A DNA stretch of 64,000 nucleotides from an uncultured delta proteobacterium (GCA_963828345.1 CAWHEZ010000043.1:7918-71917), one strand, 5' to 3'. Counted from the stretch's first letter, positions 362-62,907 are shown. Translations and numbers: made by a program. The notes: generated by a model from the sequence alone, not told the origin.

Positions 362-394
362 AGCGGGCGTCCCAACCGAGGGTCATTCCAAATT

Positions 395-433
395 CCCCGC
401 ACGGGCCGCAGCCGAGCTGCGTCCCGTGCGGGG
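395..433. terminator. GC-rich hairpin between convergent gene ends (candidate bidirectional terminator)
   Basis: Perfect 11-bp stem CCCCGCACGGG / CCCGTGCGGGG with a 17-nt loop, between the hsp20 stop (361) and the regulator stop (439). There is no U-tract, so the function is inferred. Confidence 0.35.
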
Positions 434-438
434 GGCGC

Positions 439-1596
439 TCAGTGCATCTTCGAGATCTCGCCGGCCGTGCGGATTTCGGCCGGAAGGTCGCCGATCTCGA
501 TCACCAGCTCCACCCCCAGGGCGAAGGCGCGCTCGATCACGTTCTCCAGCTGGATCACGTTGCCCGGCCAGCCGTACCCGAAAAGGTAGTCCATGGCGTC
601 GGGGGCGACCGAGTAGACCTTCCTGACGCTGCGGGCGTTGAACTGCTGCAGGAAGTGGTTGATCAGCAGGCAGAGGTCTTCCTTGCGCTCGCGCAGGGGC
701 GGCATGTGGATGACCGCCTCGCCGAGCAGCGCGTGCAGCTCCCTGGCCAGCAGCCCTTTGGCGAGCGCCTCCTTCACGACCCGGTTCGTCGCGGCGATGA
801 TCCGCGGCGCCCGGCGCGTGCCGGTGCGCGCGGCCTCGCGCAATTCCCCGCCGATGGCGGCCAGGTGCGCCTGGGCCTCGGCGGGCAGCTCGCAGATGTC
901 GTCCAGGAAGAGCGTGCCCTCGCCGGCGCTCTGAACCAGCTCGCGCAGCCGGTCCGGCTGCCCGGCCGGCGCGATCCCTTTCACCAGGCCCTGGCACGCG
1001 GCCGGCACGAAGGGGCTCTGCGCGCGGGAGCCGGTGCGGTGGATGACGTGGGCCGCCAGCTCCTTGCCCGTGCCGCTCTCGCCCTCGATCAGCACGTGAG
1101 GGGCGCTCGCCTGCATGCGGTCGATCACGTCGTAGATCTCCTGCATCCTCGGGCTGATCCCCACCAGCCCGCCGTACCGGTGGCGGTCCTTCACCCGCGA
1201 TTTCAGGACGATCCGTTCCTGCTTGAGGTTCTTCTCCTCGACGATGCGGTCGATGATGATCTTGAGGACGTTGAGCTTGAAGGGTTTCTGCAGGTAGTCG
1301 TAGCTGCCGAACTTCATCGCCTGGATCGCAGACTCCATCGAGCCGTGCCCCGTGACGATGATCACCTCGGTCTCCGGCCGGTACTCCTTGATGGCGGACA
1401 ACAGCTCCAGGCCGTCGATGTCCGGCATCTTGATGTCCGTGAAGACGATCTCGAAGGGGTGGTCCTTGATCATCTGCAGGGCCTTGACGCCGTTGTCCAC
1501 CACCTCGACCCGGTAGCCCACCTCGGACAGGTACTCGTGCACCATGTCGAGGATCATCCGGTCGTCGTCCACGAAGAGAATTCCTGAACCGTTCAT
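439..1596 (-). CDS. Response-regulator receiver fused to a degenerate sigma-54-type AAA+ domain (no GAFTGA loop, no DNA-binding HTH)
   Basis: REC motifs are present (VDDD, TDIKMPDIDG, VTGHG, QKPF). So are Walker A GESGTGKE, Walker B TLFLDD and PPLRERKED. The ESELFGH..GAFTGA segment is missing, and the protein ends right after the AAA+ lid. RBS GGAGGTGA lies upstream of the ATG at 1596. Confidence 0.85.
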   Translation of the reverse strand: MNGSGILFVDDDRMILDMVHEYLSEVGYRVEVVDNGVKALQMIKDHPFEIVFTDIKMPDIDGLELLSAIKEYRPETEVIIVTGHGSMESAIQAMKFGSYDYLQKPFKLNVLKIIIDRIVEEKNLKQERIVLKSRVKDRHRYGGLVGISPRMQEIYDVIDRMQASAPHVLIEGESGTGKELAAHVIHRTGSRAQSPFVPAACQGLVKGIAPAGQPDRLRELVQSAGEGTLFLDDICELPAEAQAHLAAIGGELREAARTGTRRAPRIIAATNRVVKEALAKGLLARELHALLGEAVIHMPPLRERKEDLCLLINHFLQQFNARSVRKVYSVAPDAMDYLFGYGWPGNVIQLENVIERAFALGVELVIEIGDLPAEIRTAGEISKMH

Positions 1597-1634
1597 CCGT
1601 CACCTCCGGGAGAGCAGGCGGCCCCCATGCAGGG

Positions 1635-2675
1635 TCAGCGCTTGGCCTCGGGCCGCTCGTCCAGGTTGTACCGCTTGATCTTCTCGACCAGGGTGGTGCG
1701 CTTCATCTGCAGCAGGTCGGCCGCGCGGTTCTTGACCCACCCGGCGCGTTCGAGGGCGCTCCGGATAAGGGCCTTCTCGAACTCCGCGACCGCGGTCTGG
1801 AAGGAGATGCCCTCCTCCGGCCCGGTCTTGCCCCGCGGCCGCTCGCGGGGTTCGTGATCCCGCCGGACGCTCTCGGGCAGGTCCTCCGCGGAGAGCAGCT
1901 CGCCCTCCTTCAGGACCACGACACGCTCGATCAGGTTTTTCAGCTCGCGAACGTTGCCGTGCCAGGGGTAGGCCACCAGCCGCTGCAGGGCGTCTTCCGC
2001 AACCCGCATCACCGGCCGCCCGTTCTTGCGTGCGAACTCCTCGAGGAAGTGAGCGACCAGGAAGGGGATGTCGCCCTTGCGTTCGCGCAGCGCGGGCAGC
2101 AGGATCGGGATCACGTGCAGCCGGTAGAAGAGGTCCTCCCGGAAGCTCCCCTTCTGCACCTCCTCCTCCAGGTCGCGGTGGGTGGCCGCGATGATGCGCG
2201 CGTCCACCTTGATGGTCTCCCGGCCGCCGACCCGCTCGAACTCGCCCTCCTCCAGCACCCGCAGGACCTTCACCTGCAGGTCGGGGTTCATGTCGCCGAT
2301 CTCGTCCAGGAAGATGGTCCCGCCGTGGGCCATCTCGAACTTGCCCGGCGTGTCGGCCACTGCGCCGGTGAAGGCCCCGCGGCGGTAGCCGAAGAACTCG
2401 CTCTCCAGGAGCCCCTCGGGCGTCGCCCCGCAGTTGATCTGGATCAACGGCTTGGCCCGGCGCGGCGAGCACTCGTGGATGGCCCGCGCGATCAGGCCCT
2501 TGCCCGTGCCGGTCTCGCCGTTGAGCATGATGGTCGTGTCGCTGGCGGCCACCTTCTCCACGATGCCGAAGATCTTCCGCATGGATGGGCTCTGGCCGAT
2601 GATGCCGTCGAACGCGCTCTGGCAGGGGGATCCGATCGGGATGATGTTGCCTTTGGGCAGGGGGGACCCGGTCAT
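1635..2675 (-). CDS. Sigma-54-dependent transcriptional activator, sensor-less (AAA+ plus Fis-type HTH only)
   Basis: Walker A GETGTGKG, intact [24 protein letters not shown], and a C-terminal HTH ([21 protein letters not shown]). Only about 25 aa precede the AAA+ core. I prefer the ATG at 2675 (MTGSPLP..) over the ORF start at 2753. Confidence 0.85.
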
Positions 2676-2767
2676 GGGCGTCCTTCTGCGGGCGCAGACC
2701 CGCTGTGGCTTTTCACGGTTTTTTCTGATACCAGCTTTCGGTGCAAATCGCAAATGGATGCCGCTGA

Positions 2768-5119
2768 ATGAAGCCTGAACTGCACATCGGGGTGCGCGAC
2801 CTGGTCGAGTTCGTCCTGCGTCGCGGCGACCTGAAGCACGAATTCGCCGGGTCCTCCCGGGCCGTGGACGCCGTGCGTCTGCACCAGCGCATCCAGTACT
2901 CCCGCCCCGAGAGCTATCTCCCGGAGGTCGCGGTCAGCCGCGAGATCGACACCCCCGATGTGAGGCTCACGATCGGGGGGCGGATCGACGGGGTGATCGC
3001 GGGGGTGATCCCCGTCGTCGAGGAGATCAAGACGACCCGGCGCGACCCGGCCGAGGCGATCGCGGAGGAGAACGCCCTGCACTGGGGCCAGGCCAAGGCG
3101 TACGCGTTCCTCTATGCGACCGCGCACGGCCTCGACCCGATCGGCGTCCAGCTGACCTATGCCCGCCTCGACACGGGGCGGATGCGCGAGGTCCGGCGCA
3201 CCTTTGCGCTCGCCGAGATCCGGGTCTTCTTCGACGACCTGGTCGGCCGCTACCTCGAGTGGGCCCGGCGGCTCATCGGCTGGCGCCTGCAGCGCGACGA
3301 CTCCATCCGCCGGCTCGAGTTCCCCTACCCCGCCTACCGGCCGGGGCAGCGGGAGATGATCGATGCCGTGGAACGCACCCTCCACTCCGCCGGGCGCAGC
3401 TTCATCCAGGCCGCGACCGGGATCGGCAAGACCATGGCGGTCCTGCTCCCGGCCGTGAGGTCGATCGCCGCGCAGGTGTCCGAAAAAGTCTTCTACCTCA
3501 CCGCCCGCAACACCGGCCGCCTCGCGGCGGAGACGGCCGTCGACGAGCTGAGGGCGCGGGGGCTCAGGCTCAAGAGCCTGTCGCTCACGGCCAAGGAGAA
3601 GGTCTGCGCCCACCCGGGCCGCGCCTGCACCCCGGAGGAGTGCGACGTCGCGCGCGGGCACTACGACCGGCTGCCGGACGCCCGCCGAGCGGCGTTCGAG
3701 CTGGACGCATGGACCCGCGAAACCGTGGCGGACGTCGCCCGCCGCTTCGCGGTCTGCCCGTTCGAATTCGCGCTCGAGCTCTCGACCTGGGCCGACCTGA
3801 TCGTCTGCGACTACAACTACGCGTTCGACCCGAGCGCCTACCTGCGCCGCTTCTTCGGCGACGAGCCGGGGGACTACGCCTTCCTCGTGGACGAGGCCCA
3901 CAACCTGGTCGACCGCGCGCGGGAGATGTTCTCCGCCGAGCTGCGCCGGCAGCCCGTCCTGGAGCTGCGGCGCACGGTGAAGACCGCGCTGCCCGCCGTC
4001 TACCGGGCCCTCGGCCGGGTCAACCGCTGGATGCTCGCCGCGCACACGCGCTGCGCGGACGCCGGCGCGCCCGTGGCCGACCGCGAAGCGCCCGAAGACC
4101 TGTACCCGCTGCTGCAGGAGTTTCTCGCCGCGGCCGAGGCGTGGCTCGAGCGCAACGCGCCGGCCCCGTTCCGGGAGGCGCTGCTCGAGCGCTACTTCGA
4201 GGCGGGGGCCTTCCTGCGCGTGTCCGAACGCTTCGACCGGGCCTATGCGGCCTGCTACGAAGCCGCGGGCAAGGACGTGCGCGTGCGGCTCTTCTGCATC
4301 GACCCGTCGCGGCAGCTGGCCGACGCCCTGGCTCGCGGCCGCGCGGCGGTGTTCTTCTCGGCGACGCTCGCGCCGTTCGATTACTTCAAAACCCTCCTGG
4401 CCGGGGACTCGGCCGAGACCCTGGTCCTGCCCTCGCCGTTCCCGCCCGAGAACCTGGGCATTTTCATCGCCGACCGGGTCTCCACCTACTACCGTCACCG
4501 CGACCGCACGCGGGCCGAGATCGCCCGCCTCGCGCTGGACTTCGTGCGGCCGCAGGGGGGCAACTACCTGCTCTTCTTCCCGTCCTACGCCTACCTGCGC
4601 ATGGTGCTCGAGGAATTCCGCACGCACGCGCCGCAGGTCGAGGTCGTCGTCCAGGAGTCCGGCATGAGCGAGCGGGAGCGCGAGGCCTTCCTGGCCCGCT
4701 TCGACGCCGACAACCCGCGCACGCTTGTGGGGTTCGCGGTCATGGGCGGGATCTTCGGCGAGGGCATCGACCTGGTCGGCGACCGGCTGAGCGGCGCGGG
4801 CATCGTCGGGGTCGGGCTCCCGGGCGTCTGCCTGGAACGGGAGCTGATCCGCACCTACTTCGACGAACACATCGAGCAGGGGTTCGAATACGCCTACATG
4901 TACCCCGGCATCAACCGCGTGCTGCAGGCGGCCGGCCGCGTCATCCGCTCCGATGACGACCGCGGGGTCGTGCTCCTGATCGATCAGCGCTACCGGGGCG
5001 ACGCCTACCGCCGCCTGCTGCCCGAGGGCTGGCGCCCGGCGACCGTCCGCGACGGCGCGACCTTGTCCGCGGGCCTGGAGTCGTTCTGGCGCCCCGGGCG
5101 ACCCTCCGCCCCGGTCTGA
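2768..5119 (+). CDS. DinG/XPD (Rad3)-family ATP-dependent DNA helicase with an N-terminal PD-(D/E)XK (RecB/Cas4-like) nuclease domain
   Basis: The N-terminal ~140 aa carry GRIDGV...VEEIKT...QAKAYAFLY (D / ExK / QxxxY). The helicase part has Walker A ATGIGKT, DEAH box VDEAHNL, and four Cys (VCAHPGRACTPEEC...AVCPFE) typical of the XPD Fe-S domain. Helicase C motifs are present (GIFGEGID, QAAGRVIRS). Confidence 0.85.
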   Translation: MKPELHIGVRDLVEFVLRRGDLKHEFAGSSRAVDAVRLHQRIQYSRPESYLPEVAVSREIDTPDVRLTIGGRIDGVIAGVIPVVEEIKTTRRDPAEAIAEENALHWGQAKAYAFLYATAHGLDPIGVQLTYARLDTGRMREVRRTFALAEIRVFFDDLVGRYLEWARRLIGWRLQRDDSIRRLEFPYPAYRPGQREMIDAVERTLHSAGRSFIQAATGIGKTMAVLLPAVRSIAAQVSEKVFYLTARNTGRLAAETAVDELRARGLRLKSLSLTAKEKVCAHPGRACTPEECDVARGHYDRLPDARRAAFELDAWTRETVADVARRFAVCPFEFALELSTWADLIVCDYNYAFDPSAYLRRFFGDEPGDYAFLVDEAHNLVDRAREMFSAELRRQPVLELRRTVKTALPAVYRALGRVNRWMLAAHTRCADAGAPVADREAPEDLYPLLQEFLAAAEAWLERNAPAPFREALLERYFEAGAFLRVSERFDRAYAACYEAAGKDVRVRLFCIDPSRQLADALARGRAAVFFSATLAPFDYFKTLLAGDSAETLVLPSPFPPENLGIFIADRVSTYYRHRDRTRAEIARLALDFVRPQGGNYLLFFPSYAYLRMVLEEFRTHAPQVEVVVQESGMSEREREAFLARFDADNPRTLVGFAVMGGIFGEGIDLVGDRLSGAGIVGVGLPGVCLERELIRTYFDEHIEQGFEYAYMYPGINRVLQAAGRVIRSDDDRGVVLLIDQRYRGDAYRRLLPEGWRPATVRDGATLSAGLESFWRPGRPSAPV

Positions 5120-6761: not shown

Positions 6762-7891
6762 GCGCGGCCCGCCCGCGGCCGGCGGCCATCGTCGGCACGG
6801 TCCTGCTCGCCTCCGGACTCTGGTGGATGACCTTCGCGCAGGAGCTGGCCTCGTTCTGGGTCAAGATTTCGATATCCGCATCGCTGCTGGCCGCGATCTC
6901 CCTGCTCCTGCGGCCGCCTCCGCGCGGCAGCTTCCGATGGGACGCACCGGCCCTCGCCTGGGGCCTGGCGTCCGCCGTCGTTCTTTACGGAATTTTCTGG
7001 GCGGGCAAGGCGGTCTCGACTGCGGCCTTCCCCTTCGCGGGCGGGCAGATCGGCAGCATCTACCACAAGGGGGACGGAACACCGCTCTGGACGATCGCCG
7101 TCCTGCTCTTCTGCGTCACCGGCCCGAGCGAGGAAATCTACTGGCGCGGGTTCCTGCAGCAGGCGCTGATGGACCGACTCGGGCGCTGGGGGGGCTGGGC
7201 CGCCGCGACCGCCCTCTACGCCGGCGTCCACATCTGGTCCTTCAACTTCATGCTCGTGGGCGCCGCCGCGGTGGCCGGCGCGTTCTGGGGCGCACTGTAC
7301 GCGCGCTGCGGCCGCCTGGCGCCCGTGATCGTCTCGCACTCCATCTGGAGCACCGTCATCTTCGCCGTTTTCCCGATGCGATAAGCTGCAGATAACAGCT
7401 GGATAGCTGATCGCGGTGGGCGAACGGCGGATCGCCCCCTCCCGCCGGCCCCTCCCGCTACGGGGAGGGGAGATGAGCTGCACCGCGGCCTTGATCGCCT
7501 CCAAGATCGGGCCCTGCAGGGTGCGCCACTTCGGCCGGATCGCCCCGCCTTCGGTCCACTCGAATTCCACCGCATCGTATTTTTCCGGGACGACCCGCTC
7601 CCCCTGCTGGCCGTAGATGCTCTGCGGGTAATGCTCGACGTACATCATGCGGCCGGGCGGGATGGCGAACTCCCGGCTGACGCAGGTGGCGACGTGCCCG
7701 GCGCAGCTGCGCACCGACATGCGGCTGCCGGGCACGTCCGAGACGAGGACGATCGTCGGCCGCAGGTGCGCGGCCTTCGCGCCGGGGGGTTCCGTGGAAA
7801 GGTCGTAGATCCGCAGGCGGCAGCGGCCGCTCGCAAGCTTCAGCCGCCCCCCGAACCCCGGCCAATCGTAGATGCCGTCGTGAATCAGCAT
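6557..7891 (-). CDS. Hypothetical protein; only the first ~145 codons (7891 down to ~7460) look coding, and the annotated stop is probably not the real one
   Basis: The N-terminal part (MLIHDGIYDWPGFGGRLKL...EFEWTEGGAIRPKWRTLQGPILEAIKAAVQ) has normal composition. The rest is Arg/Gly/Asp-rich antisense read-through of the CPBP and menA-like genes. A strong hairpin CCCCTCCC/GGGAGGGG sits at ~7446-7467, with an out-of-frame TAG at 7458-7460. Confidence 0.4.
   Translation of the reverse strand: MLIHDGIYDWPGFGGRLKLASGRCRLRIYDLSTEPPGAKAAHLRPTIVLVSDVPGSRMSVRSCAGHVATCVSREFAIPPGRMMYVEHYPQSIYGQQGERVVPEKYDAVEFEWTEGGAIRPKWRTLQGPILEAIKAAVQLISPPRSGRGRREGAIRRSPTAISYPAVICSLSHRENGEDDGAPDGVRDDHGRQAAAARVQCAPERAGHRGGAHEHEVEGPDVDAGVEGGRGGPAPPAPESVHQRLLQEPAPVDFLARAGDAEEQDGDRPERCSVPLVVDAADLPAREGEGRSRDRLARPENSVKNDGGRQAPGEGRCVPSEAAARRRPQEQGDRGQQRCGYRNLDPERGQLLREGHPPESGGEQDRADDGRRPRAGRAHIHTPATSEATRSRPKTVSSFAVCASASSGTSVAICRRSLTASGADSSTISDQGSSGPKTDMAATAA
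6758..7384 (+). CDS. CPBP-family intramembrane glutamic endopeptidase (CAAX protease-like)
   Basis: Motifs SEEIYWRGF, GVHIWSF and SHSIWS in a multi-TM protein. A GTG at 6758 overlaps the menA-like stop by 4 nt. The longer ORF start at 6233 lies inside the upstream gene. Confidence 0.8.
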   Translation: MSAARPRPAAIVGTVLLASGLWWMTFAQELASFWVKISISASLLAAISLLLRPPPRGSFRWDAPALAWGLASAVVLYGIFWAGKAVSTAAFPFAGGQIGSIYHKGDGTPLWTIAVLLFCVTGPSEEIYWRGFLQQALMDRLGRWGGWAAATALYAGVHIWSFNFMLVGAAAVAGAFWGALYARCGRLAPVIVSHSIWSTVIFAVFPMR

Positions 7892-7993
7892 GACGCCCTT
7901 TTCAGAACATGGAGAGGAACTGTCTTTTCCCCCAATCCCCCTCTCACAAGAGAGGAGAAACTCGGGTTGAATCGGCTGAGCCCAAAGCCCGAG

Positions 7994-8078
7994 TTCAAGG
8001 CGCGCAAGCCGTGCGGCCCGAGGCGTACTCCGGTACGCCGCAGGGCCCGCGCGGCGCCGCGCAACGCCGAAATCGGGC
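7994..8078. repeat. Copy A of an ~85-nt structured repeat (long interrupted hairpin 8008-8055)
   Basis: About 80% identical by my hand alignment (68/85) to the reverse complement of 43619-43704. The hairpin is GCCGTGC-GGCCC-ga-GGCGTAC-tccg-GTACGCC-gca-GGGCC-c-GCGCGGC. It lies just downstream, in minus-strand sense, of the cbbO-like stop. Confidence 0.7.
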
Positions 8079-8093
8079 TTTCGGCCCAGCCGA

Positions 8094-10772
8094 TCATCGC
8101 GTCAGCGCGCTGTAGACGGTTAGCAGCCGCCCCGGCAGCTCCTGCACGTCCGCGATCACGTGGTGGCGCGCCTTGCCGTAGAGCGCATCCAACTGGGCGT
8201 CCGCCGGCAGGTTGACCGTCAGGGCGTGAAACCGGATGTGCCGCCCCTGCAGCTCCAGCAGGGCGCGGCGCGTGTCCGCAACGGCGTGGGCCCCCTTGTA
8301 GCCGGTGTCGTTGGGAAACCCGTCGCTCAGGATGACGAGCAGCCGCACCCGCGCGGGCACGGCGTCCAGCTCCCGGCCGGCATGGCGGATGGCGGCCCCC
8401 AGGCGGGTGTTGCGCTGCGGCCGCAGCGCCCCGAAGCGGCGCTTGACCTCCGGCGAGAGGGACTCGCCGAAGCCCTTGATCCCGAAGTAATCCACCCCCA
8501 GGCGCCCCGTCCCGGAGAAGGCTGCCACGGCGAACGAATCCCCCAGCACCGTCAACGCCTCGCACAGGACGACGATCGACTCCTTCTCGACCTCCAGAAC
8601 CGATGCGTCCGATCCCGGCACCGGGTGGGCGGTCGAACGGGAAACGTCCACGAGCAGGAGCACCGCGACGTCGCGCCGGTGCTTCACGCGCTTGATGAAC
8701 ACGCGGTCGGAGGGCGCATCGCCCAGGCGGCGGTCCACGGCCGATTCGATCAGCTCCCGGTAGTCGAACTCATCCCCGTCCACCCAGCGCCGCAACCGTT
8801 CCACCCCCTCCGGCCGCATCCGCTCGAAGGCCTGCCGCGTGTGCCCGACCAGCACGCGGCGGCGGCGCAGCACGTCCGTGTAAAACTCCTCGTGCCCCGC
8901 GGACGGCGACGGGTGCACGCGCAGCCGCACGTGCTCGGGGAGGTAATCCCCGAGACGGTCGTCCCATTCCGGGTAGCGGTAGACGAGACCCGCATCGTCA
9001 CGGGCCGCATCCGGCCCGGACCCATCGGCGTCGAGCCCGCCTCCCGCCCGTGCCAGCTCGGGGATCAGCGCAGCGTCCGAACGGCAGAGCTCCTGGAGGT
9101 CGCGGGCGGTGAGACGGCCGCCGCCGTCCCTCAGCCGTCGGCGGAGCTCGGAGCGGCGAGCCCGGATGCCATGACGCGACAGCGCTTCCGCGAGACGGCC
9201 CACGGCGCGCTCCCGGGCGGCGTCGCCGGCCGCGGCCGGGTTGGGCCAGGGGCGCCAGCCGAACGGCGGGGTGAGGCCGCCCGCGCGCGGAGTGGCGCAG
9301 GACGCGCAGTACCGGGCGGCGAGACCCCCGGCCGCCTCGACCGGACTGGCCGCCGTGACCTCGCGCTCAAATGCCGCCGCGATCTCGGCCTCCGGCTCCC
9401 CGCCCGGAGCGGCGCCGAGCCCCAAGGCCACGCGGGCGAAGAGCTCCGCGAGCGGGTCCGCGGCGGCCCCCTCCCGTTCCTCCCGGAACACGGCCTGCAG
9501 GAGCGGGTACCACCGCCGCACGAGGCCGGGATACCCGTCCGCAAGGCAGAGGCGAATGCGGCCGAGCTCGAAGATGGTGAAGGCGTCCGCGGCAAACACC
9601 GGGTCCGGGAAACCGGACAGGAACCGGTCGATGTCCGGCCGCGCGGGGCCGGGCGGCACGGCCGCGCGACCGCCCCATCCGGCCGGGCAGAAGTCCAGCG
9701 CCCGCTCCAGCTCGAAATCGAAGGTGCCGAATTCGTGCAAGCTCGCCTCCAACCGCACCAGCAGGCGGTAGAGCCGCTCGTTCTCGTCCCGGCGGTCGAA
9801 GCGGTCGATCTCGTCCGGGAGGTAGATGGCGTCGCCGTCGGAGCAGACCATCCGACCGCGGCCGAGGGACGCCGCCTGGGCCGCCGGCAGCTCCGACAGC
9901 GGCCGGACGACGAGACCGAGCCCGGTGCGGGCGTGCAGGTAGCGGCGCAGGCGGTCCTGCACCTGCCCGCAGCCGACGCTCACCTGCAGGAGCCTCAGCT
10001 GGTCCCGGGCGGTTTCCGATTCGAGTGCGAGCGCCCGGGCGGCGGCGTCCGGGTGGCGGCGGTGCACCGCGAGCGCGTGCTGCACGAACTGCCGCAGCGC
10101 GTCCTCCCGCAGCAGCCGCAGGCCCTTTGCCATCCCGGCCAGGAACGGCTCGATCAGATTGCGGTCGACGCGGGCGAGATCCAGGAGTTCGCCCAGTTGG
10201 AAGTGCCGCCGCCGAGGGTCGAGCCCCAGCAGCGCCTTCGGCAGGAGCGCGGCAAAATTGCGGCATTCGGGGTAGCCGGCGTCCGACGCGAAGACCACCC
10301 GCAGCAGGTCGAGGTAGACCGCCGCCGCGGCCCGGCCGCCCTCTGCCAGCACGGGCCCCAGCGCCAGCAGCGGCTCACGCAGGGCGTAGCTGCCCTTGCG
10401 GCCCATGGCGTCCCAGGCGCAGGTGAAGCGCTCCAGGCACTCGGCATCCCCGTGCGCCAGCACCGGCGGCAGACACTCGGCCATGATGCGACCCAGGGTG
10501 GGGCCCGTCCGCAGCGCCGCCCGCACCCGCTCCGTGTAACTTCGCCGGGACTCGGGGCCTGCCGACCCCACCAGCTCGGCGCAGCCTTGGCCGACCGCGC
10601 GGCCGAATGCCATCTCCTCCCCGAGCGCCCAGAGGGCCTGCTCGACCAGCCAGGACATCTCCTCGGCGGTCGGCGGTGCCGGCAACCGCGCCAGACGCGC
10701 GGCGACCGCCGCGGCCAGCTCGGGGTCGGCGGTTTTCAGGGTCTCGATGGCGTCGGCGAGGAGGGCGTTCAT
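8094..10772 (-). CDS. CbbO/NorD-like protein with a C-terminal von Willebrand factor A domain
   Basis: The C-terminal VWA has a MIDAS-like motif (LLLVDVSRST ... ILSDGFPND). It has a long helical N-terminal region and sits immediately downstream of a CbbQ/NorQ AAA+ gene. Confidence 0.85.
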   Translation of the reverse strand: MNALLADAIETLKTADPELAAAVAARLARLPAPPTAEEMSWLVEQALWALGEEMAFGRAVGQGCAELVGSAGPESRRSYTERVRAALRTGPTLGRIMAECLPPVLAHGDAECLERFTCAWDAMGRKGSYALREPLLALGPVLAEGGRAAAAVYLDLLRVVFASDAGYPECRNFAALLPKALLGLDPRRRHFQLGELLDLARVDRNLIEPFLAGMAKGLRLLREDALRQFVQHALAVHRRHPDAAARALALESETARDQLRLLQVSVGCGQVQDRLRRYLHARTGLGLVVRPLSELPAAQAASLGRGRMVCSDGDAIYLPDEIDRFDRRDENERLYRLLVRLEASLHEFGTFDFELERALDFCPAGWGGRAAVPPGPARPDIDRFLSGFPDPVFAADAFTIFELGRIRLCLADGYPGLVRRWYPLLQAVFREEREGAAADPLAELFARVALGLGAAPGGEPEAEIAAAFEREVTAASPVEAAGGLAARYCASCATPRAGGLTPPFGWRPWPNPAAAGDAARERAVGRLAEALSRHGIRARRSELRRRLRDGGGRLTARDLQELCRSDAALIPELARAGGGLDADGSGPDAARDDAGLVYRYPEWDDRLGDYLPEHVRLRVHPSPSAGHEEFYTDVLRRRRVLVGHTRQAFERMRPEGVERLRRWVDGDEFDYRELIESAVDRRLGDAPSDRVFIKRVKHRRDVAVLLLVDVSRSTAHPVPGSDASVLEVEKESIVVLCEALTVLGDSFAVAAFSGTGRLGVDYFGIKGFGESLSPEVKRRFGALRPQRNTRLGAAIRHAGRELDAVPARVRLLVILSDGFPNDTGYKGAHAVADTRRALLELQGRHIRFHALTVNLPADAQLDALYGKARHHVIADVQELPGRLLTVYSALTR

Positions 10773-10915: not shown

Positions 10916-11722
10916 TTAAAACACGTCATCGATGAGCTCGCCGAGCGTCTCGATCAGCCGCTCGTCATCCGTGAGCGGCAGGCAGACGGCCGTGCGCAGG
11001 GCGTCCTTCTCCGGCACCCCCCGGCCGATCAGGCGCGCGGCGTGCACGAGCAGCCGCGTGCTCGCCCCCTCGGCCAGCCCCTGCTCGCGCAGGAGGCGGA
11101 TCTTGCCCGCGAGCGTCACGAGCTTGAGAGCGTGAGCGCGGTCGATGCCCCCCTCGTGCGCCACGATCTCGGCTTCGGCTTCCTTGGGCGGGTAGTCGAA
11201 CTCGAGCGCCACGAAGCGCTGGCGGGTGCTCTGCTTGAGGTCCTTGAGCACGGACTGGTACCCCGGGTTGTAGGAGACCACCATCATGAAGTCGGGGTGG
11301 GCGGCGAGGTGCTCGCCGGTCTTGTCGATCACCATGCGCCGGCGGCTGTCGGTGAGCGGGTGGATGACGACGGTCGTGTCCTTGCGGGCCTCGACCACTT
11401 CGTCCAGGTAGCAGATGGCGCCGGACCGAACCGCCAGGGTGAGCGGCCCGTCCATCCACACGGTCTCCTCCTGCCGCAGGAGGTAGCGCCCGACGAGGTC
11501 CGAGGCGAACAGGTCCTCGTGGCAGGCCACGGTGATCAGCGGCCGCCGCAGCCGATAGGCCATGTGCTCGACGAAACGCGTCTTGCCGCAACCGGTCGGC
11601 CCTTTCAGCAGCACCGGCAGCCGCGCCGCGCTGGCGGCTTCGAACACGGCCACCTCGCTGCCGTGCCGGATGTAATACGGTTCCTCCCGAATCTGGTAGC
11701 TTTCGAGGCCGTTCGGTCCCAT
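10916..11722 (-). CDS. CbbQ/NorQ/NirQ-family MoxR-type AAA+ ATPase
   Basis: Walker A GPTGCGKT and Walker B ICYLDEV, with the family-typical length (~268 aa) when started at the ATG at 11722. That ATG is preceded by GGGGAGG; the ORF start at 11803 is less likely. Confidence 0.9.
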
Positions 11723-11820
11723 TGCGCCTCCCCTCGCGTAATTTGCCATACCCCCCCGGATGTAATAAACTGGTGCATTGCCGCGGGGATCCACCCGGTT
11801 CACTTATATTACGGAGCCTT

Positions 11821-16346: not shown

Positions 16347-18494
16347 CTACCCCAGCCGTCGGGCATCCTGGACCTGCCGGACCTTCCTCACCGCCGAGAG
16401 AATCCGCTCCAGGTGCCCGGTGTTCTCCACGTTGATGGTGAAGTGACTCTCGACCATCTTGTTTTCCGTGGTCTCGGAGCTGGCGGTCAGGATGTTGGCC
16501 CCGAGCTTGCTGATGTTGCCCACCAGGTCGGCCAGCAGCCCCATGCGGTCCTGTGAAATCACCTCGATCTTGACCGGGAAGGTTTCGGCCGACTCCGTGT
16601 TCCATTCCACCTCGATCTGACGGTCCGGGTTGCTGCGCAACGCGTTCACGCAGCCGGCCCGGTGGATCGTCACCCCGTAGCCCTGCGTGATGTAGCCGAT
16701 GATGGGGTCCCCCGGCACCGGCTGGCAGCACCTGCCGAATTTGATCAGGATGTCATCCACCCCCCTGACGAGCACGCCCGCCTTGGTCTTCTTCTTGCGC
16801 ACGCGGCTCATCAGCTTTTCCAGGATGGATGCGCCCGATTCCACCTCCGGCTTCGCAATGAACGGCCGCAGCACCTGCACGGGGGTGGCCTTCCCGTAGC
16901 CGACGTTGGCGACGAGATCCTCCAGGGTCTTCAGGCCCAGCGCCGCGACCACCTCGGTCATTTTTTCGCTCTTGCTGAGGGTGGTGAAGCTCAGCTTCTC
17001 CTTGCGGAAGGCCTTGTCGAGCATTTCGCGGCCGAGGGTGATGCTGCGCTCCCGCTCCTGGGTCTTGATCCACTGCCGGATCTTGGAGCGGGCCTTGATG
17101 GTTTTGACGAACTTCAGCCAGTCCTTGCTCGGGCTGTGGTTCTTGGAGGTGACGATCTCGACGATGTCCCCGGTCTGCAGCTGGTACGGCAGGCTGACCA
17201 TGTGCCCGTTGATCTTGGCCCCCACGCACTTCTGACCGATCTCGGTGTGGATCAGGTAGGCGAAGTCCACCGGCGTCGCCCCCTTGGGCAGCGCCCGGAT
17301 GTCCCCCTTGGGGGTGAACACGTAGACCTCGTCCGGGAAGAGATCCAGCCGCACGTTTTCCAGGAATTCGCCCGCGTCCCTGAAGTTGTCCTGGTTCTCC
17401 ACCAGATCCTGGATCCAGGCGAACTTCTTGCTGATGTTCTCATCGATGCTCCGGCCTTCCTTGTAGCTCCAGTGGGCGGCGATCCCGGACTTGGCCACGC
17501 GGTCCATCTCCCAGGTGCGGATCTGGATTTCGATGCGCTCGCCCACCGGGCCGATGACGGTGGTGTGCAGGGACTGGTACATGTTCGGCTTGGGGCGGCC
17601 GATGTAGTCCTTGAACTTGTAGTCGATCGGCTTCCACATGGAGTGGATCAGACCGAGGGCTTCGTAGCACTGGGGCACGGTGTCCAGGATGATGCGGAAG
17701 GCGATGAGGTCGTAGATCTGCTCGAAGGTCAGGTTCTGGGCCTTCATCTTCGAGTGGATGCTGAAGTAGTTCTTGCTGCGGCCGAGCACCTCGCCCTTGA
17801 GGTTCATCTCCTCCAGGCGCCGGCGGATGGTGGCGCGCACGTTCTCGATATACTGCTCGCGCTCGGTCCTGGACTTGGCGACCAGCAGCTCGATCTGGGC
17901 GTACTCGTCCGGGTTCAGGTATTTGAAGGAGTTCTCCTCCAGCTCGTTCTTGATCCAGTAGATCCCGAGCCGGGCGGCGATGGGCGCGTAGATGTCCATC
18001 GTCTCCCGTGCGATGGCTTTGCGTTTTTCGGGGGAGTGGAAGCGCAGGGTGCGCATGTTGTGCAGCCGGTCGGCCAGCTTGATGAGGATCACGCGGATGT
18101 CGTCGGCCATGGCGAGGAACATCTTGCGGATGTTCTCGGCCTGGCGCTCCTGCGAGCTCGACGTGGGCAGCAGGCTCAGCTTGGTGACCCCCGAGACAAT
18201 GCGCTCCACGTCGGGGCCGAAGAGGTCCCGCAGCTCGGTCGGCCGGGTCGGCGTGTCCTCGAGCACGTCGTGCAGGAGCCCGGCCGCGACACTGACGGCA
18301 TCCAGCTTCATGTCGGCCAGGATGTTGGCGACTTCCAGGGGGTGCATGAGGTAGGGCTCGCCGGACAGGCGCACCTGTCCGGCATGGACCCGCGCCGAGT
18401 AGATGTAGGCGCGCTCAACCACATCCACGTCGGGGTTGGGGTAGTACTCGGAGATCTTGTCGAGGATGTTGTTGATTCGGATCATCGCGTGCAC
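16347..18494 (-). CDS. rel: Bifunctional (p)ppGpp synthetase/hydrolase, RelA/SpoT family
   Basis: HD hydrolase domain (HPLEVA..LLHDVLEDT), the RelA_SpoT synthetase domain, and TGS and ACT C-terminal domains. 715 aa. Confidence 0.95.
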   Translation of the reverse strand: MHAMIRINNILDKISEYYPNPDVDVVERAYIYSARVHAGQVRLSGEPYLMHPLEVANILADMKLDAVSVAAGLLHDVLEDTPTRPTELRDLFGPDVERIVSGVTKLSLLPTSSSQERQAENIRKMFLAMADDIRVILIKLADRLHNMRTLRFHSPEKRKAIARETMDIYAPIAARLGIYWIKNELEENSFKYLNPDEYAQIELLVAKSRTEREQYIENVRATIRRRLEEMNLKGEVLGRSKNYFSIHSKMKAQNLTFEQIYDLIAFRIILDTVPQCYEALGLIHSMWKPIDYKFKDYIGRPKPNMYQSLHTTVIGPVGERIEIQIRTWEMDRVAKSGIAAHWSYKEGRSIDENISKKFAWIQDLVENQDNFRDAGEFLENVRLDLFPDEVYVFTPKGDIRALPKGATPVDFAYLIHTEIGQKCVGAKINGHMVSLPYQLQTGDIVEIVTSKNHSPSKDWLKFVKTIKARSKIRQWIKTQERERSITLGREMLDKAFRKEKLSFTTLSKSEKMTEVVAALGLKTLEDLVANVGYGKATPVQVLRPFIAKPEVESGASILEKLMSRVRKKKTKAGVLVRGVDDILIKFGRCCQPVPGDPIIGYITQGYGVTIHRAGCVNALRSNPDRQIEVEWNTESAETFPVKIEVISQDRMGLLADLVGNISKLGANILTASSETTENKMVESHFTINVENTGHLERILSAVRKVRQVQDARRLG

Positions 18495-61446: not shown

Positions 61447-62907
61447 ATGGAAAGCCTGCCCCCCGTGAAGCTGGGGGCTCACATCCTGGCGGCCTTCGCG
61501 GCCGCGCTGCTCCTGCGGTACCCGCTTGAAAAACGATTTGTCGCCGACGCCGAGGAAATCGCTCAGCCGGCCCGCCAGTTCGCGCTCGACCAGGGCCTCG
61601 GGGCGGTTGCCGCCCTGGTCGCCGCCGGGCTGAACCACGTTCGCTTCGGGTTCCCCGCCGGCAGCGTCCTCAGCCTGATCCTCGGCGTCATGTTCTACAG
61701 CTTCTTCGTTGCCCTGGACACCGCGCTCGCCCGGGAGCACGCGATCATTCTGAAGGTGGCGCGCGAGGGCCGGGCGCTGCCCGTCCCGCACCGCCTCTTC
61801 CCGATGACGCGACGCTTCACGCTGGTGGCGGTCGCGACCGCGGTCTGCGTGTCGGCGGTCAACGTGCTGGTGATCGCGCGCGACATGAGCTGGCTCACCG
61901 GGATCGGCGACGACCCGGCCGCGCGCACGGAGGCCATCCTCTCGGTCACCGGCGAGGTGATCTTCGTCATGGTCGTCACGCTCGGCCTGGCCGCGAATCT
62001 CATCGTCTCCTACTCCCGCAACCTGAAGCTGCTCTTCCGCAACGAGACCAGCGTGCTCGAGCAGGTCACCCGCGGGGACCTCAGCCGCATGGTGCCGGTG
62101 GCCACGCGCGACGAGTTCGGGCTGATCGCCGGCCACACCAACACCATGATCGAGGGGCTGCGGCACCGCACCGAGCTCATCTCCGCGCTGAAGCTGGCCG
62201 AGGAGGTGCAGCGCACGCTGCTGCCCGCCGGGCCGCCGCAGGTCCCGGGGATCGACGTGGCCGGCGCGAGCATCTACTGCAACGAGACGGGCGGGGACTA
62301 CTACGACTACTTCGTGCTGCCCGGTGGGCGGCTGGGCATCGCGGTCGCGGACGTGGCCGGCCACGGCATCGACGCGGCGCTGTTCATGGCCTCGGCGCGC
62401 GCCTTCATCCACGCGGAAGCCCAGGGGTTCAGCAGCCCCTCCACGCTCGCCCGCGACGTGAACCGCTACGTGGCCCGGGACTGCGGCCCGACCGGCCGCT
62501 TCATGAGCATGTTCTTCCTCGAAATCGATCCGGCGCTGAAAACCATGCGCTGGGTGCGGGCCGGGCACGAACCGGCGCTGATGGTCGACCCGGGCGCAGG
62601 CGATTTTCGTGAGCTCGGCGGGGAGGGCATGGCGCTCGGGGTGGAAGACGAGGTGGCGTACCGCGACTACGCGCTGACGGGGTGGGGACCCGGGACCGTG
62701 GTCGTCATCGGCACGGACGGGATCACCGAGAGCCGCAGCCCGGCCGGGGAGTTCTTCGGGGCGGCGCGCGTGCGCGAGCTCGTCCGCGCGCACGCCCACC
62801 GGCCGGCCGAGCACATCCAGGCCGCCGTCATCCGCGCCGTCGAGGCGTTCCGGGGGGACGGCCCGCAGGAGGACGACATCACGCTGGTCGTCGTCAAGCT
62901 GGCCTGA
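61447..62907 (+). CDS. Membrane-bound HAMP domain / PP2C-type (SpoIIE/RsbU-like) serine phosphatase
   Basis: N-terminal TM segments, a HAMP-like linker (..VTRGDLSRMVPVATRDEFGLIAGHTNTMIEGL..), and a SpoIIE/PP2C core (GGDYYDYF..IAVADVAGHGIDAAL..GTDGITE). Confidence 0.85.
   Translation: MESLPPVKLGAHILAAFAAALLLRYPLEKRFVADAEEIAQPARQFALDQGLGAVAALVAAGLNHVRFGFPAGSVLSLILGVMFYSFFVALDTALAREHAIILKVAREGRALPVPHRLFPMTRRFTLVAVATAVCVSAVNVLVIARDMSWLTGIGDDPAARTEAILSVTGEVIFVMVVTLGLAANLIVSYSRNLKLLFRNETSVLEQVTRGDLSRMVPVATRDEFGLIAGHTNTMIEGLRHRTELISALKLAEEVQRTLLPAGPPQVPGIDVAGASIYCNETGGDYYDYFVLPGGRLGIAVADVAGHGIDAALFMASARAFIHAEAQGFSSPSTLARDVNRYVARDCGPTGRFMSMFFLEIDPALKTMRWVRAGHEPALMVDPGAGDFRELGGEGMALGVEDEVAYRDYALTGWGPGTVVVIGTDGITESRSPAGEFFGAARVRELVRAHAHRPAEHIQAAVIRAVEAFRGDGPQEDDITLVVVKLA

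Follow-up and report, generated by a model that had tools for sequence, protein, structure and literature searches.

A conserved gene pair of Desulfobacterales encodes a sensor-less sigma-54 activator and a degenerate receiver-AAA+ paralogue, a candidate regulator in trans

Sigma-54 activators, also called enhancer-binding proteins (EBPs), are a model for the switching-on of AAA+ rings. The known switches of EBPs are sensor domains that act in cis, unrelated anti-activators (for example PspA, HrpV, FleN and NifL), and pairs of active paralogues (for example HrpRS and RedR1/2). Here we describe two adjacent genes, A and B, in a 64,000-nucleotide stretch of DNA from an uncultured delta proteobacterium (GCA_963828345.1 CAWHEZ010000043.1:7918-71917). 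This whole stretch is the window that was analyzed, and window positions are counted from its first nucleotide. Gene A encodes a sigma-54 activator without a sensor domain. Gene B, located just downstream, encodes a receiver-AAA+ protein that lacks both the GAFTGA motif, which contacts sigma-54, and a DNA-binding domain. The architecture of this pair is clean, testable and conserved, but it is confined to one order, and its mechanism is proposed by inference.

The HrpR/HrpS pair of Pseudomonas syringae resembles A-B in being composed of adjacent, co-transcribed and co-evolving EBP paralogues, at least one of which is sensor-less, and it works through AAA+ hetero-oligomers (PMC3105312). However, HrpR and HrpS both keep a GAFTGA-type loop, a helix-turn-helix (HTH) and the ATPase motifs, and both lack an N-terminal domain. 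Their input is HrpV/HrpG and involves no receiver, whereas B has a receiver but no L1 loop, HTH, sensor II arginine or arginine finger. FleQ/FleT of Cereibacter (Rhodobacter) sphaeroides, like A-B, combines a DNA-binding EBP with a partner of the EBP family that does not bind DNA, and hetero-oligomers have been proposed (PMC10084136, PMC7175178). In contrast to B, FleT has no regulatory domain and is regarded as an active bacterial EBP; FleT is compared here by its description and not by its motifs. The PspF-PspA, HrpS-HrpV, FleQ-FleN and NifA-NifL systems share with the arrangement proposed for A-B an EBP that has no working input and is gated by a separate AAA+-binding protein, but PspA, HrpV, FleN and NifL are not AAA+ paralogues and carry no receiver domain.

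Other proteins resemble B alone. NtrX, VpsR, TyrR and Rhodobacter NtrC are proteins of the NtrC family that lack the sigma-54 contact loop and act at sigma-70 promoters, and NtrX and VpsR rank high among the matches of B in both sequence and fold. Unlike B, these proteins keep a DNA-binding domain, and the NtrX sequence that was aligned keeps FREDLFHRL. FlgR (Helicobacter) and CtcC (Chlamydia) have the same order of receiver, AAA+ and lid without an HTH, but they keep GAFTGA and activate sigma-54 directly from solution. NtrC1 of Aquifex aeolicus is the closest solved structure across the receiver, linker and AAA+ domain (1ny5/4l4u), but it is a complete activator with GAFTGA, R299, R357 and an HTH. 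Literature searches, which had incomplete coverage, returned only HrpRS, FleQ/FleT, RedR1/2 and VnfA/AnfA-type cases, and no described receiver-AAA+ partner lacking both GAFTGA and an HTH. The A-B pair resembles known paralogue or trans control of EBPs, yet it fails to show defining features of each of these named systems.

The features of gene A are as follows:
1635..2675, minus strand: gene A, a sensor-less sigma-54 enhancer-binding protein; open reading frame (ORF) of 346 amino acids (aa) from ATG, with AAA+ domain including GAFTGA, lid and Fis-type HTH
2499-2519, minus strand: Walker A, from motif position
2361..2378, minus strand: GAFTGA sigma-54 contact motif, exact, residues 100-105
2301-2315, minus strand: Walker B, from motif position
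2118-2144, minus strand: arginine fingers in FREDLFYRL, from motif position
1941-1958, minus strand: sensor II motif GNVREL, from motif position
1668..1790, minus strand: Fis-type HTH (HTH_8), Pfam PF02954

In Pfam searches, A matches Sigma54_activat (PF00158, residues 25-191, 236.5 bits), AAA_lid_14 (PF25601, residues 197-278) and HTH_8 (residues 296-336, 51.2 bits). Pfam gives no domain before residue 25, so A has no sensor domain. These matches and the motif positions agree with the initial annotation, a reading of the sequence alone that had placed a sensor-less activator with GAFTGA and a Fis-type HTH here. The protein has everything expected of a functional sigma-54 activator, namely a Sigma54_activat domain, GAFTGA, Walker A and B, arginine fingers, sensor II and a DNA-binding domain, and in alignments it is canonical at all positions that are degenerate in B, including Walker B, the arginine fingers, sensor II and the switch asparagine. 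Judged by these motifs, A alone has the full architecture predicted for a constitutive activator of the PspF/HrpS type. It is not a PspF orthologue, with scores of 271.7 bits for TIGR02974 (cut-off 443.55) and 223 for PRK11608 (cut-off 529), and neither A nor B reaches a curated NCBIfam equivalog cut-off. Homologues of A were collected as the best 120 matches only, and all belong to one clade. All are at least 70% identical to A, and they are 336-350 aa long, or longer by choice of start codon, except for two shorter ones (297 and 313 aa), whose coverage of A is 86-90%. The gene calls of the source contig include the same A, at 346 aa, and the same B. The G+C content at third codon positions (GC3) of A and B is 0.92-0.95, as in surrounding real genes.

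Gene B comprises these features:
439..1596, minus strand: gene B, an ORF of 385 aa with receiver, degenerate AAA+ domain and lid (Pfam)
1255..1581, minus strand: receiver domain, residues 6-114 (PF00072)
1423-1443, minus strand: FTDIKMP with the phospho-acceptor Asp54, within the receiver domain
916..1014, minus strand: remnant of loop L1, residues 195-227, from alignments; the GAFTGA segment is deleted and the remainder is poorly conserved
805..864, minus strand: remnant of loop L2 (pre-sensor I), residues 245-264, shortened and hypervariable
721..753, minus strand: arginine-finger region LLARELHALLG, numbered via the 1ny5 alignment
547..564, minus strand: sensor II motif, GNVIQL in place of GNVREL, with the sensor II arginine replaced by Ile348
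442..489, minus strand: conserved C-terminal tail (DLPAEIRTAGEISKMH); the protein stops where canonical activators run on into the HTH

Pfam finds Response_reg (PF00072, residues 6-114, 104.9 bits), Sigma54_activat (residues 145-292, only 80 bits, with a cut-off of 20.2) and AAA_lid_14 (residues 302-380, 81 bits) in B, but neither HTH_8 nor any other DNA-binding family. B ends 13 residues beyond the DLP motif of the lid. Both the ORF and the Pfam matches confirm that a gene with a full receiver lies at 439-1596, 38 nucleotides downstream of A. The receiver has the acidic pocket, the phospho-acceptor Asp and the conserved Thr and Lys of a two-component response regulator, and these residues (D11, D12, D54, T82 and K104) are kept in 67-68 of 68 relatives. 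B is not NtrX; it scores 245.3 bits for NF051870, for which the cut-off is 600, and the C-terminal HTH is absent according to Pfam.

The full-length alignment of B with NtrC1 (1ny5/4l4u) has an E-value of about 1e-74 and 36% identity, and the AAA+ domains of A and B are 33% identical. In alignments to NtrC1 and to A, B has an 11-residue deletion exactly at ESELFG..GAFTGA. Loop L2 has a 3-residue deletion, and the rest of it is replaced by unrelated sequence. Thus, as the initial annotation had stated, the sigma-54 contact segment is deleted in B, and the protein ends after the lid. That reading also credited B with Walker A, Walker B and the arginine-finger region. Walker A (GESGTGK) is indeed intact. 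Walker B, however, reads DD where DE is canonical, Leu290 aligns with NtrC1 R299, the trans-acting finger, and Ala284 aligns with NtrC1 R293. The position of the switch asparagine (PspF N64) is Ala200. Ile348 replaces the sensor II arginine of the GNVRELxN motif, which we take to be NtrC1 R357 and PspF R227. In HrpS, the sensor II arginine is R226 (PMC3105312). NtrC1 R299 is equivalent to PspF R168, which is a trans-acting arginine finger (PMC7175178).

B therefore has the central-domain homology of sigma-54 activators without their GAFTGA loop, arginine finger, sensor II arginine and DNA-binding domain. Because L1, L2, the arginine finger, the sensor II arginine and the DNA-binding domain are lost, B is predicted to be unable to hydrolyze ATP efficiently, touch sigma-54 or bind an enhancer. 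Nucleotide binding by B is nonetheless expected. In an AF2 structure model, the alpha/beta core of the AAA+ domain is confident, with predicted local distance difference test (pLDDT) values of 82-94, and a lone helix (residues 210-223) lies at the site of the L1 insert. The best structural matches of this model are the inactive-state dimers of NtrC1 and NtrC4, followed by NtrX, LuxO and VpsR.

Relatives of B were sought among 5.8 billion proteins. They form more than 100 clusters with 72-100% identity, all are 377-389 aa long, and none contains HTH_8. When sequences are clustered at 50%, only four representatives with the deletion are found besides the group of the query, at 43-60% identity, so the family is small. 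The next matches beyond it are ordinary NtrC-type regulators of 450-470 aa with GAFTGA. The JGI (IMG) label of B-family proteins is 'DNA-binding NtrC family response regulator', despite the lack of a DNA-binding domain. In NCBI source names they appear as sigma-54-dependent (Fis family) transcriptional regulators, despite the missing sigma-54 contact motif.

A scan of one genome per GTDB species, in which WPGNVIQL served as a family-specific pattern, revealed 67 species-level loci that encode a B relative with at least 51% identity. The genomes are nearly all labeled as Desulfobacterales, Desulfobacteraceae, Desulfosarcina, Desulfatibacillum or 'delta proteobacterium' metagenome-assembled genomes (MAGs), with three other bin labels. 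Residues were counted in 68 full-length sequences. No GAFTG-like motif is present in any of the 68, and all 68 share the same in-frame deletion, so the loss of the motif is not explained by a frameshift or by an error in sequencing. The Walker A Lys and Asp54 are invariant (68/68 each), as are the Ile at the sensor II position and the Gln that follows it (Gln349), where A has R-E. Walker B is DE in 55 sequences and DD in 13. As a measure of conservation, the frequency of the majority residue, averaged per region, is 0.79 in the receiver, 0.79 in the lid and 0.71 in the C-terminal tail, and falls to 0.45 in the L1 remnant and 0.36 in the L2 remnant. This is the pattern expected of a protein that is kept for something besides catalysis or sigma-54 contact, and B looks like a conserved but catalytically degenerate pseudo-ATPase, not a decaying gene. 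Reading frames are truncated in four MAG loci, affecting B in two (258 aa in L073, 214 aa in L074) and A in two (303 aa in L025, 231 aa in L033); a frameshift, an assembly error and a real pseudogene are not distinguishable for these frames.

A lack of conservation of the two genes as neighbors had been named beforehand as one outcome that would refute a functional pair, but conservation is observed: in 59 of the 67 loci, tblastn with A finds an orthologue directly upstream of B on the same strand. The A orthologues beside B are 61-99% identical to A, the full-length ones are 324-346 aa long without a sensor domain, and GAFTGA is exact wherever the contig covers that part of the gene. The spacer between the genes ranges from a 1-nucleotide overlap (six loci) to about 175 nucleotides, and is typically 22-70 nucleotides. 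The pairwise identities of A and of B correlate with r = 0.87 (53 complete pairs, 1378 pairwise comparisons), and of the two proteins A evolves more slowly (mean identity 70%, compared with 59% for B). The pair is kept in at least three differing genomic contexts. A DinG/XPD-like helicase gene is divergent from A in about 38/67 loci. Only about 20/67 loci, all within a high-GC subclade, have the two hsp20 genes in convergent orientation to B. Other loci are flanked by a CLC channel gene, by a convergent gene that appears OmpA-like in its reverse-strand translation (by eye) or by a downstream gene that is possibly MarR-like. Thus A and B, like HrpR and HrpS, are adjacent, co-transcribed paralogues that are conserved together (59/67; r = 0.87).

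The elements around the two genes in the window are as follows:
2725..2753, minus strand: candidate promoter of sigma-70 type for the A-B operon (TTGCGA-N17-TATCAG, TG at the extended -10), assigned by consensus only; it lies in the 92 nucleotides between A and the divergent helicase gene
1597..1634, minus strand: A-B spacer, 38 nucleotides, with a GGAGG ribosome-binding site 6 nucleotides before the ATG of B and no apparent terminator
362..438, no strand assigned: spacer between B and the convergent hsp20 gene; its G+C-rich inverted repeat (CCCCGCACGGG...CCCGTGCGGGG) is probably a bidirectional terminator

Because no terminator is apparent in the 38-nucleotide spacer, A and B form one operon. 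The element TTGCGATTTGCA..CTGGTATCAGAAAA upstream of A is conserved in the high-GC clade. A conserved element, TTTGCGATTTGCA, overlaps the putative -35 box, and the equivalent site upstream of A in L075 is a perfect palindrome, TTTGCGAT-CC-ATCGCAAA. These two sites hint at an operator, possibly for autoregulation by A.

The initial annotation interpreted the two genes as a 'split NtrC' in which every module occurs once. This interpretation does not hold, since both proteins carry an AAA+ domain and A alone has a full PspF-like architecture. Nor does B fit as a ring subunit of the HrpR/HrpS kind, since it has no arginine finger and is not catalytically competent. The other suggestion made there, that A is controlled in trans, is favored by the data: with the loop, the DNA-binding domain and the catalytic arginines of B missing, little is left beyond protein binding.

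Because every element for an output of its own is lost, the only plausible output of B would be protein binding. Because A has no input domain, it would need control in trans, like PspF and HrpS. The genomic data support A best as the partner of B, and they suggest that the two proteins are in contact. We rate it about as likely as not that B exerts its effect on A through direct contact of the AAA+ domains.

In NtrC1, the receiver is a negative regulator: until it is phosphorylated, it keeps the ATPase as a dimer in the off state. We propose that A and B might constitute a two-protein regulatory module in which A is a constitutively competent sigma-54 activator without an input domain. A histidine kinase encoded elsewhere would phosphorylate Asp54 of B, and phosphorylation would free the AAA+ module of B from the dimer imposed by the receiver, as in NtrC1. 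The freed module could then dock on A via the normal AAA+ protomer interface. An arginine finger serves the neighboring protomer, and sensor II serves its own. A B protomer next to A would therefore leave a site of A without a finger and would not turn over the ATP bound to B itself; it might thus silence the adjacent active site of A, and would also interrupt the run of L1 loops. B would then be a phosphorylation-gated inhibitory subunit of A, acting by 'poisoning' or capping the ring. Two known pairs bear on this choice. HrpR/HrpS becomes inactive when a key residue of GAFTGA is lost from just one of the subunits, whichever it is (PMC3105312), and in RedR1/RedR2 the inactive partner inhibits the active one via hetero-oligomers of the central domains (PMC10084136). 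Because HrpRS needs both GAFTGA motifs and an inactive RedR partner inhibits the active one, an inhibitory B gated by phosphorylation is favored. The opposite wiring, in which unphosphorylated B inhibits A and phosphorylation relieves the inhibition, is equally compatible with the sequence data. More generally, the B family might consist of natural 'decoy protomers', that is, receiver-controlled pseudo-AAA+ paralogues that bind nucleotide and insert into or cap an activator ring; this is a tentative idea, somewhat short of probable. It is just as tentatively that we envisage phosphorylation of B setting a sensor-less activator off (or on), thereby giving it a two-component input.

Several observations weigh against this proposal. 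For inhibition by B, given direct contact, we would expect it roughly twice as readily as activation, but the sign is suggested by analogy only. An Arg is present at the finger position in 9/68 B relatives (one subclade and L014), and for that subclade the case for a pure 'poison' is less strong. The quality of the AF2 model of B is intermediate, with a mean pLDDT of 70.6 and the lid below 50. The initial annotation had proposed a search for the cognate histidine kinase, and none was found: no HisKA or HATPase_c domain occurs among 34 window ORFs scanned with Pfam, a set that contains the largest ORFs and makes up about two-thirds of all those predicted (roughly 51), and no kinase was found in the 10 kb past the left edge of the window. 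B is therefore an orphan response regulator. A search for -24/-12 promoters nearby, which had been proposed as well, was likewise negative. Scans for TGGCACG-N4-TTGCW, with GG and GC required and with a tolerance of two mismatches for the window and for the 67 related loci or of three for the source contig (L005), revealed no credible promoter near the pair, and matches either lie within coding sequence or are not conserved in intergenic DNA. No enhancer was found in the window or in the DNA that flanks it.

In addition, an adjacent A is missing for five to seven B-family genes. Those with enough upstream DNA yet no adjacent A are in L040, L062, L064, L065 and L071. In L040, a DDE transposase gene (2554-3957) occupies the place that A has in the closely related L044, and B is left without a partner. 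The B proteins of L062, L064, L065 and L071 are the most divergent (51-53%), and their genes share a second arrangement that is itself conserved: a radical SAM gene follows B, which in L065 and L071 is of the B12-binding type. In L064, the radical SAM gene is followed by a REC-HisKA-HATPase kinase and then by a complete REC-AAA(GAFTGA)-HTH regulator. In both L064 and L062, where the arrangement spans 7607-9167 and 7600-9182, respectively, it begins with a good match to a sigma-54 promoter (TGGCATGGGCCTTGCT), followed by a small ORF of roughly 48 aa that is rich in Arg (MNTTERDMTIRSNEDRRSGYDRRRFSYTGHIPERR...) and then by the B-like gene. LT984854 (Desulfobacterium sp. TRIP AH-1) also has just an orphan B in the 17 kb that were covered. 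Because these five loci lack an adjacent A, B-type proteins can apparently operate without a co-encoded A, possibly on other activators. Among more distant relatives, the metagenomic proteins P0123 and P0128 lack GAFTGA and have no adjacent activator. P0133 (L008 428-1633), which is of the FlgR/CtcC type, has 401 aa, is 40% identical to B, keeps the ESELFGHEKGAFTGA GAFTGA motif and is encoded directly after a histidine kinase gene; it has GNVIQL and the C-terminal tail of the B family, but no finger Arg and no HTH. P0133 may represent an intermediate step in evolution; alternatively, it may bind sigma-54 while its ATPase is dead.

It is unlikely that B is an obligate positive partner, such that the only active species is an A-B hetero-hexamer, as with HrpR/HrpS or FleQ/FleT. 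That idea draws on the co-operonic arrangement and the co-divergence of A and B, on the precedent of FleT, a bacterial EBP that works with FleQ although it has neither a regulatory nor a DNA-binding domain (PMC7175178; PMC10084136), and on the finger-position Arg of the 9/68 relatives. The invariant Walker A suggests nucleotide-dependent assembly, so phosphorylated, ATP-bound and non-hydrolyzing B protomers could nucleate or stabilize a ring of A, a variant that is unlikely too. However, in HrpRS, the only pair that has been dissected, GAFTGA is strictly required in both proteins (PMC3105312), and B has no L1. Moreover, with no sensor II Arg in any B and no finger in most, half of the ATP sites in an alternating ring would be dead, and A alone has each motif of a self-sufficient activator. 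We consider it similarly improbable that B is independent of A, serving instead as a regulator with a protein-protein output, such as an RssB-like adaptor, a factor that sequesters sigma-54 or other activators, or a phosphate sink. Under that explanation, the adjacency of the genes would reflect shared regulation alone, which we also regard as improbable. The orphan B genes beside radical SAM genes fit such independence, all the more in L064 with its kinase and full regulator nearby, as do P0123 and P0128, and so does the occurrence of the C-terminal tail and GNVIQL signature in P0133, a protein with GAFTGA that is encoded after a histidine kinase. However, the adjacency in 59/67 loci, the six 1-nucleotide overlaps and the correlation of r = 0.87 exceed what is expected for mere co-regulation. 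The AAA+ oligomerization fold is also the only extensive surface that B shares with activators, and without L1 the canonical binding of sigma-54 is lost.

Two further explanations concern the origin of B. Gene fission, in which two polypeptides reassemble one NtrC-like protomer with the receiver from B and the ATPase and HTH from A, would account for the presence of a receiver, a working AAA+ domain and an HTH in A and B together. It is nevertheless very unlikely, because both proteins contain a full-length AAA+ and lid module, and these modules are 33% identical, no closer than B is to NtrC1 (36%). The gene order of A then B is also the reverse of REC-AAA-HTH, and the strong constraint on the AAA+ domain and lid of B is not expected for a leftover linker. 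Alternately, the loss of several catalytic motifs and the hypervariable loop remnants could mark B as a decaying, non-functional paralogue, or a pseudogene in progress. This is barely credible, given that more than 100 clusters and at least 60 species keep an intact frame of near-constant length, that Asp54, the Walker A Lys and the Ile348-Gln349 replacement are invariant, and that GC3 of B (0.95) is typical of expressed genes in the window. Gene decay thus appears to be effectively refuted by the conservation data.

If the decoy-protomer interpretation is true, A-B would represent a new wiring principle, in which an activator is under dominant-negative or scaffold control by a pseudo-enzyme paralogue fused to a phospho-receiver. 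B would then be the first EBP regulator that is itself a degenerate copy of the motor domain of the activator. With the pair it would also be possible to ask, in a natural setting, what number of functional L1 loops and ATP sites is required in a ring. A recent cross-phylum survey keeps only proteins that contain GAFTGA (PMC12316311), and EBP surveys defined by this motif would have missed the B family if the decoy-protomer interpretation holds. As long as the kinase and the target genes await identification, the practical impact is modest, and the hosts are uncultured or little-studied Desulfobacterales.

Several candidate targets of A were considered and rejected. A recurrent sigma-54-like match, TGGCAGGAGTCGTGCA, lies inside a conserved coding region, and another, TGGGACGTTCGTTGCC, lies inside a convergent gene whose reverse-strand translation is OmpA-like by eye. 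Matches in the window at 992 and 16496 are inside B and relA/spoT. Autoregulation of A from an upstream -24/-12 promoter is not supported, since no such promoter was found and the conserved element there fits a sigma-70 -35 and extended -10. No PspA-like gene occurs in the annotated loci.

The window edge interrupts the hsp20 gene next to B (32-361). This gene, which is convergent with B, is the second in a tandem of two; its complete form and the other hsp20 gene lie outside the window. The promoter of the hsp20 operon, TCTTGACAT (TTGACA)-N17-TAAATT, is conserved in ~20 loci and lies to the left of the window (L005 12108-12321). Upstream of it are a conserved CATTACT box and an AT-rich tract of about 45 nucleotides, and no GG-N10-GC element is present upstream of hsp20. 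These sequences point to control of the sigma-70 type with a putative operator upstream, and not to a sigma-54 or classical sigma-32 consensus. As a sigma-54 target of A, hsp20 is thus a poor candidate, since it is linked to B in only about 20/67 loci and has a sigma-70-like promoter. The regulon of A is probably unlinked to the A-B locus.

Other genes in the window were also noted. The helicase gene divergent from A (2768-5119, plus strand; DEAD_2, HBB and Helicase_C_2) is separated from it by a 92-nucleotide gap, and its product has an unassigned N-terminal extension of ~190 aa. CbbQ/NorQ ATPases usually work with a large VWA partner. In the window, a CbbQ/NorQ-type AAA_5 ATPase gene (10916-11803, minus strand) adjoins an 892-aa ORF (8094-10772, minus strand) that has no Pfam match at E <= 1e-5 and may encode a divergent VWA partner. 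A MASE10-SpoIIE (PP2C-type) membrane phosphatase is encoded at 61447-62907 on the plus strand, and a RelA/SpoT homologue at 16347-18494 on the minus strand. The remainder of the window contains mostly housekeeping genes, including genes for riboflavin synthesis, tRNA synthetases and the methylmalonyl-CoA pathway.

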